From assembly GCF_054482595.1 (NCBI RefSeq), contig NZ_CM137008.1: a DNA stretch of 64,000 nucleotides; one strand, given 5' to 3'. Shown here in pieces: positions 7,578-8,494 of this stretch; positions within the stretch are counted from its first letter, which is position 1; every line of letters starts with the position of its first letter. The notes under the pieces were generated by a model. That model was not told where the DNA came from, ran no database searches, and was given only the letters and a program-made list of their open reading frames with translations. Position numbers and translations under genes: made by a program.

Positions 7578-8494
7578 ATGGCTTGGCTTCCCCTTAACCC
7601 CATTCCACTCAAAGATCGCGTCTCCATGATCTTTCTGCAATATGGGCAGATCGATGTAATAGATGGCGCGTTTGTACTTATCGACAAGACAGGGATCCGC
7701 ACTCATATTCCTGTTGGCTCGGTTGCCTGCATCATGCTGGAACCTGGTACACGGGTTTCGCATGCAGCTGTTCGCTTGGCTGCGCAAGTTGGAACATTGT
7801 TGGTATGGGTGGGGGAAGCGGGCATTCGTGTTTATGCTTCTGGTCAGCCTGGTGGTGCGCGTTCAGATAAGCTGCTCTATCAGGCAAAACTTGCTCTGGA
7901 TGAAGATTTGCGTCTGAAGGTCGTACGTAAAATGTTTGAACTTCGGTTTGGAGAACCTGCGCCTGCCCGGCGCTCCGTAGAGCAACTCAGAGGTATAGAA
8001 GGCAGTCGCGTGCGGGCACCCACGCACTTCTGGCGAAGCAATACGGCGTGACATGGAATGGACGTCGCTACGATCCGAAAGACTGGGAAAAGGGCGATAC
8101 GGTCAACCAATGCATTAGCGCTGCAACTTCCTGTTTATACGGCGTAACTGAAGCAGCGATACTTGCAGCTGGTTATGCACCAGCTATTGGGTTTGTGCAT
8201 ACAGGAAAGCCTCTTTCCTTTGTTTACGATATTGCAGACATCATTAAATTTGACACTGTTGTACCGAAAGCTTTTGAGATAGCGCGTCGTAACCCTGGTG
8301 AGCCGGACCGGGAAGTCCGTTTGGCGTGCAGGGATATTTTTCGCAGTAGTAAAACATTAGCCAAATTGATTCCGCTTATAGAGGACGTGCTTGCTGCTGG
8401 AGAAATACAACCGCCGGCCCCACCTGGAGATGCACAGCCTGTTGCCATTCCGCTTCCTGTTTCACTGGGAGATGCAGGCCATCGGAGTAGCTGA
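7578..8494 (+). pseudogene. cas1: cas1 integrase split by a -1 frameshift near 8016-8024 into two ORFs (7563-8051 and 8048-8494)
   Basis: ORF1 gives MAWLPLNPIPL...EGSRVRA then out-of-frame PTHFWRSNTA*; ORF2 gives (V)TWNGRRYDPKDWEKGDT...HRSS; reading frame 2 upstream of 8048 restores ...LLAKQYGVTWNGRRY, which is continuous Cas1 sequence. Confidence 0.85.

Follow-up and report, generated by a model that had tools for sequence, protein, structure and literature searches.

A clonally inherited frameshift pseudogene of cas1e in Escherichia coli beside full-length Cascade and Cas3 genes

In the window analysed here, a stretch of 64,000 nucleotides of Escherichia coli DNA, the cas1 gene of a type I-E CRISPR-Cas locus can be read as one protein only if the reading frame changes partway through the gene. 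This raises the question of whether the gene is genuinely broken, is intact and wrongly sequenced, or is decoded across two frames into a working enzyme, and, if it is broken, of what remains of spacer acquisition and how the loss came about.

The cas1e lesion and the locus around it

The cas1e pseudogene (7578..8494; this and all other features of the locus lie on the plus strand) starts with ATG at 7578 and measures 917 nt, as against 918 nt in intact alleles. The list of open reading frames returns it in two pieces, 7563..8051 and 8048..8494. The N-terminal ORF (7578..8051, 157 aa) encodes native residues 1-147, E141 among them, and in translation runs through ...QLRGIEGSRVRA up to A147, after which come ten aberrant residues, PTHFWRSNTA, and a TGA stop at 8049-8051. 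The C-terminal remnant (8048..8494, 148 aa) is read in the shifted frame as ...ALLAKQYGVTWNGRRYDPKDWEKGDT...GHRSS*, terminates at 8494, is equivalent to residues 158-305 of K-12 Cas1 and includes H208, D218 and D221. The first-pass annotation of this DNA had given the same two frames with the same ends, and translation confirms them; the stretch of K-12 Cas1 that it had cited also proves correct, as the Cas1 of DH1, 305 aa long, contains ...RVRATYALLAKQYGVTWNGRRY....

Alignment to K-12 and other intact alleles places the lesion at 8018..8021 (codons 148-149), where intact AACCT has become ACCC, and so bears out the earlier proposal of a frameshift at 8016-8024. In its context the change is from intact GGGCAACCTACGCAC to GGGCACCCACGCAC in the window (AACCTAC to ACCCAC). 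All three global alignments, to AHM8C212RI, K-12 and NH-21, concur on a 1-nt deletion and a substitution next to it at gene positions 442-445; equivalent notations are ΔA with T>C and A>C with ΔT. The lesion is compound, and therefore no plain homopolymer slip; of the original suggestion of a single-base loss beside a short C run, the 1-nt deletion stands and the simple homopolymer loss does not. Single-step intermediates, carrying the substitution only or the deletion only, number zero at 100% identity among 5,426 complete E. coli genomes, and either both changes arose together or the intermediates left no survivor among these genomes.

Otherwise the gene is very close to functional counterparts. 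It is 99.5% identical to an intact allele, and putting back one A yields a 305-aa protein with two residue differences (T2A and Y149H) from the closest intact allele. Its counterpart in K-12 (ygbT; PDB 3nkd, 4p6i, 5ds4) occupies the same position in the order cas6e-cas1-cas2-leader-array, with the same spacing and 98.6-98.8% nucleotide identity, and the repaired product, five residues different from K-12 Cas1, matches the solved structures over residues 1-305.

The remaining cas genes were said by the first-pass annotation to be full length, which holds for cas3, casABCDE and cas2 alike, none having an internal stop. Intact cas3 (131..2797) encodes 888 aa with 32 aa differences from K-12, and PGAP calls it a CDS in the carriers of the lesion described below. 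It is followed by intact casA/cse1 (3212..4720, 502 aa), casB/cse2 (4713..5195, 160 aa), cas7e/casC (5208..6299, 363 aa), cas5e/casD (6302..6976, 224 aa) and cas6e/casE (6963..7562, 199 aa), the last two with products identical to those of K-12; the interference gene set is present at full length, in agreement with the CDS calls of PGAP in carriers. On the far side of cas1e lie an intact cas2e (8496..8780, 94 aa, two aa differences from K-12), the CRISPR1 leader (8781..8885, identical to K-12 at 104 of 105 positions) and the CRISPR1 array (8886..9768) of 15 repeats of 29 nt, the last of them degenerate, and 14 spacers of 32 nt. Repeats and spacers of these lengths behind an AT-rich leader mark the array as type I-E. 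The cas1-cas2 adaptation module is not intact, cas1 being frameshifted and cas2 intact, and of cas1, cas2 and the leader, the adaptation components checked, only cas1 has a disabling lesion.

Two further observations concern annotation in the window. Some gene callers report a 129-aa cas2 ORF at 8391-8780, starting from TTG at 8391 and overlapping the orphaned 3' part of cas1; this is an annotation artefact of the frameshift. Further along, at about 20968-24486 between rpoS and mutS, are genes for a MarR-family regulator and a three-subunit hydroxyarylic acid decarboxylase, together with pphB (annotation of strain W619). The stretch between rpoS and mutS is known to be polymorphic, with other genes in its place in K-12.

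Recurrence of the lesion in a worldwide clone

The 917-nt cas1e is found at 100% identity in 14 of 5,426 complete RefSeq E. coli genomes. These represent six countries (China, Japan, Singapore, Russia, Switzerland and the UK) and human, pig, chicken and duck hosts. By exact look-up in NCBI, ENA and Logan, the 157-aa truncated product occurs on 392 public contigs and the 148-aa downstream ORF on 381; the contigs with truncated cas1e products include one metagenome scaffold. Some 1,200 cas1e genes of other E. coli have 95-99% identity and, among the matches listed, nearly all are 918 nt long and form one CDS. The carriers are closely related throughout the region: the window matches several of them, W619 for example, at 100.0% identity over 25 kb, and only 1-4 SNPs separate carriers from one another across about 16.5 kb of flanking sequence, which indicates that the clone is young. 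CRISPR2 with its flanks (1,432 nt between queE and ygcE, beyond the window) is 100% identical in 14 of 14 carriers, the next best genome reaching 90%. A published sequence type was found for one carrier only, Santai (ST1011; PMC5039186).

One base in cas7e, at position 5664, sets the window apart from XH990, Santai, THO-010 and one Logan contig; the change is presumably synonymous, because PGAP gives every inspected carrier, W619 included, one and the same Cas7 protein accession.

This distribution bears directly on the possibility that the missing base is truly present and cas1 intact, the break being an artefact of sequencing or assembly. Single-base indels are the commonest kind of assembly error, and one noisy project (runs SRR33768xxx-SRR33769xxx) has scattered +A indels across these cas genes. 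However, the same compound lesion, which lies outside any homopolymer of at least 4 nt, is present in 14 independently produced complete genomes and some 390 contigs, and the lesion and a unique CRISPR1/CRISPR2 spacer content co-segregate. Because the identical lesion recurs in this many complete genomes and contigs, the homopolymer sequencing error that the first-pass annotation had kept as an alternative is excluded; we give an artefact of any such kind a negligible probability.

The noisy project also accounts for the one candidate for a restored gene, a 305-aa ORF (P0020) that consists of the window allele with an extra A at 7954. It is present only in two runs of that project, whose assemblies contain additional indels, not always the same ones, in casB, cas7 and cas5, and in which this +A also turns up in a K-12-like allele (32 index blocks). 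On the strength of this single provenance, the varying indels and the equal insertion in another allele, we take it as platform noise and not as a compensatory mutation; even if real, the insertion would replace residues 126-148, E141 among them. More widely, Logan runs SRR33768374-SRR33769487 show recurrent single-A insertions in casB, cas7, cas5 and cas1, at the equivalents of 5042, 5852 and 7954. The +A insertions of this project are probably platform error, and possibly a hotspot or a mutator background.

The cas1e lesion is thus a genuine, clonally inherited frameshift pseudogene of a worldwide clone. It would have arisen once, in the ancestor of an E. coli clone now spread around the globe, and been inherited vertically thereafter. 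It is already known in public records, as RefSeq carries the 'frameshifted' flag and both fragments are deposited as proteins; PGAP labels cas1e a frameshifted pseudogene in all 13 carrier genomes inspected. A literature search found nothing specific among publications on the cas1e lesion or on the CRISPR loci of ST1011.

Consequences for Cas1 and the CRISPR arrays

Compared with the K-12 gene, cas1e of the window is truncated by its deletion and substitution at codons 148-149, and E141 is parted from H208, D218 and D221. Translation would stop after 147 native residues, leaving a fragment that has E141 and lacks the other three, which lie 3' of the lesion and out of frame, so that the metal-binding catalytic residues E141, H208 and D221 are not found on one chain. 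The profile of the family (NCBIfam TIGR03638, cas1_ECOLI, curated cut-off 215.6 bits) gives the repaired Cas1 372.8 bits, and the N-fragment 182.1 bits (profile positions 3-143) and the C-fragment 163.7 bits (154-268), both below the cut-off; profile positions 144-153 are in neither fragment. The break also falls inside residues 92-291, a segment crystallised as one unit (3nke). With E141 parted from H208, D218 and D221, no single polypeptide can be expected to form the Cas1 integrase active site, a strong argument that integrase activity has been lost.

Spacer uptake in E. coli needs Cas1 and Cas2, which together suffice for it, and is abolished by the single substitution D221A (PMC4081107, PMC3384332). 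Since both proteins are needed for integration, the clone should be unable to add spacers, whether by naive or primed uptake, and the strain has probably lost this ability, as judged from its gene content. The effect may extend to the neighbouring gene, as the premature stop, which precedes cas2 by 445 nt, may lower Cas2 translation by lost coupling or polarity.

The loss of activity would be avoided if the two frames were joined by a programmed -1 ribosomal frameshift, or if termination and reinitiation at GTGA (8048-8051) gave a functional Cas1 or complementing halves. The two frames do overlap for 112 nt (7940-8051), and the GTG start of the C-terminal ORF at 8048 shares bases with the TGA that ends the N-terminal ORF. 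Yet neither an X XXY YYZ heptamer nor a homopolymer of at least 5 nt occurs in the overlap, so that the slippery heptamer or long homopolymer of programmed frameshift genes of the dnaX, prfB and IS1/IS3 transposase type is absent from 7940-8051, and no Shine-Dalgarno-like sequence precedes GTG 8048. Reinitiation would in addition drop native residues 148-157 and cut within the 92-291 unit. Neither is the arrangement conserved among diverged homologues: it is seen in clonal genomes only, limited to the one clone (14 genomes), the listed cas1e genes of other E. coli being nearly all single ORFs. The clone has also gained zero spacers. Recoding, or a working split Cas1, is on these grounds very unlikely.

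The record of the arrays is consistent with a loss of integrase activity. We compared 19 CRISPR1 arrays, those of the window, the 14 carriers and four further assemblies with the truncated product. The window and the 14 carriers have one CRISPR1 spacer set in the same order and with the same leader-proximal spacer, and none of the 19 arrays contains a spacer absent from the window. What differs is the copy number of existing units: units 2-3 are lost in Santai, SM107 and AHM21C2872I and unit 9 in THO-010, and there are internal duplications of units 4-5, 4, or 11-13 (XH990, THO-010, GF66.1). The four further assemblies have lost units 1-2 or unit 2, have units 4-5 duplicated, or keep the standard order. 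Since the lesion, neither these CRISPR1 arrays nor the CRISPR2 of the 14 carriers has gained a spacer, and all array change is repeat-mediated recombination, which is independent of Cas1; arrays of the clone would change solely through such recombination between repeats. Frozen arrays fit a dead Cas1, and as functional evidence they are weak: years of array stability have been reported for E. coli with an intact cas1 as well (PMC10910852).

The degenerate repeats at the trailer end, which had been read as a further sign of Cas1 loss, carry no such information. Variant repeats toward the trailer (TT at 9557, A at 9618, T at 9679, plus the degenerate last repeat) accompany four trailer-end spacers (9496-9768) that are common to the window and K-12. 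In K-12 the TT, A and T variants lie beside these same ancestral spacers, and the degenerate terminal repeat is present in AHM8C212RI, both strains with intact cas1. Since the trailer variants occur with an intact cas1, they predate the lesion and are uninformative on Cas1 activity. The trailer-end spacers and the three variant repeats belong to an ancestral core of the array that distant E. coli lineages share.

The first-pass reading of a likely inactive adaptation module is therefore supported by a frameshifted cas1 with its catalytic residues split, among otherwise intact cas genes. We put at about 0.92 the probability of the reading as a whole, namely that an inherited loss-of-function lesion of cas1e, of single origin in a global clone, abolishes spacer addition while the Cascade and Cas3 genes remain intact.

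Decay of cas loci in E. coli

Comparable losses occur elsewhere in the species. The nearest relatives that share part of the array (spacers 6 and 9-14), 32F4 and 33E, are without the lesion of the window and have a different one in cas1, the nonsense codon W3*. In 32F4 it arises by TGG>TAG at codon 3 (retrieved locus 1297-2214), and PGAP masks it by starting the CDS further downstream, at reduced length, and setting no pseudogene flag. A separate frameshift disrupts the cas1 of GF66.2 at nt 232 (retrieved locus 2501-3417), the cas6e of the same strain has an internal stop, and NH-21 (retrieved locus 398-8339) has ISEc52 in cas3 and an IS1 that replaces part of cas7 and cas5. Like the clone described here, GF66.2, 32F4/33E and NH-21 have loss-of-function lesions in an otherwise conserved cysH-iap locus, and those of GF66.2 and NH-21 are likewise flagged by the NCBI annotation pipeline. 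However, they are independent events at other sites, in other lineages and with other spacer content. Decay of the cas locus is thus recurrent in E. coli, as expected under weak selection.

Effector genes and/or arrays that persist without a working Cas1-Cas2 are also found in transposon-associated type I-F3 and V-K systems and in BL21-type E. coli, which have arrays and no cas genes. In contrast to these, the adaptation module of the window is present and recently broken, with cas2 and the leader intact, and represents decay and not an evolved architecture.

The E. coli type I-E system is generally reported to be transcriptionally silent under laboratory conditions (PMC10910852, PMC12248084), a caution for the first-pass suggestion that the strain can still interfere. 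We infer that the cause of the cas1 loss is neutral decay of a mostly silent system. A different cause would be selection, if inactivation of cas1 were favoured in a multidrug-resistant clone, for example by halting primed or self-directed uptake against its own plasmids and prophages. Such selection would accord with the recurrence of independent cas lesions in GF66.2, 32F4 and NH-21 and with the genetic make-up of these strains, as Santai is multidrug-resistant with many resistance genes (PMC5039186) and 88COLEC has a chromosomal mcr-1 (10.1101/2021.02.19.431933). Relaxed selection on a silenced system would, however, produce recurrent lesions just as well (PMC10910852), and the loss in this clone is a single event with no convergence at the site of the lesion. 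Within the clone cas1 diversity is zero and gives no sign of selection or of its relaxation. We consider selected loss improbable, and likewise the broader speculation that loss of cas1 helped the multidrug-resistant clone, leaving a 'read-only' CRISPR locus and a natural Cas1-null background for array deletions and duplications.

The cas1e lesion is an instance of ordinary gene decay, in a known pattern of E. coli CRISPR-Cas, on which no open question hinges. Its value lies in correct annotation, as the clone is to be scored as adaptation-deficient in CRISPR surveys, and in the small natural control that it offers, in which arrays go on being remodelled by repeat-mediated deletion and duplication in the absence of Cas1.
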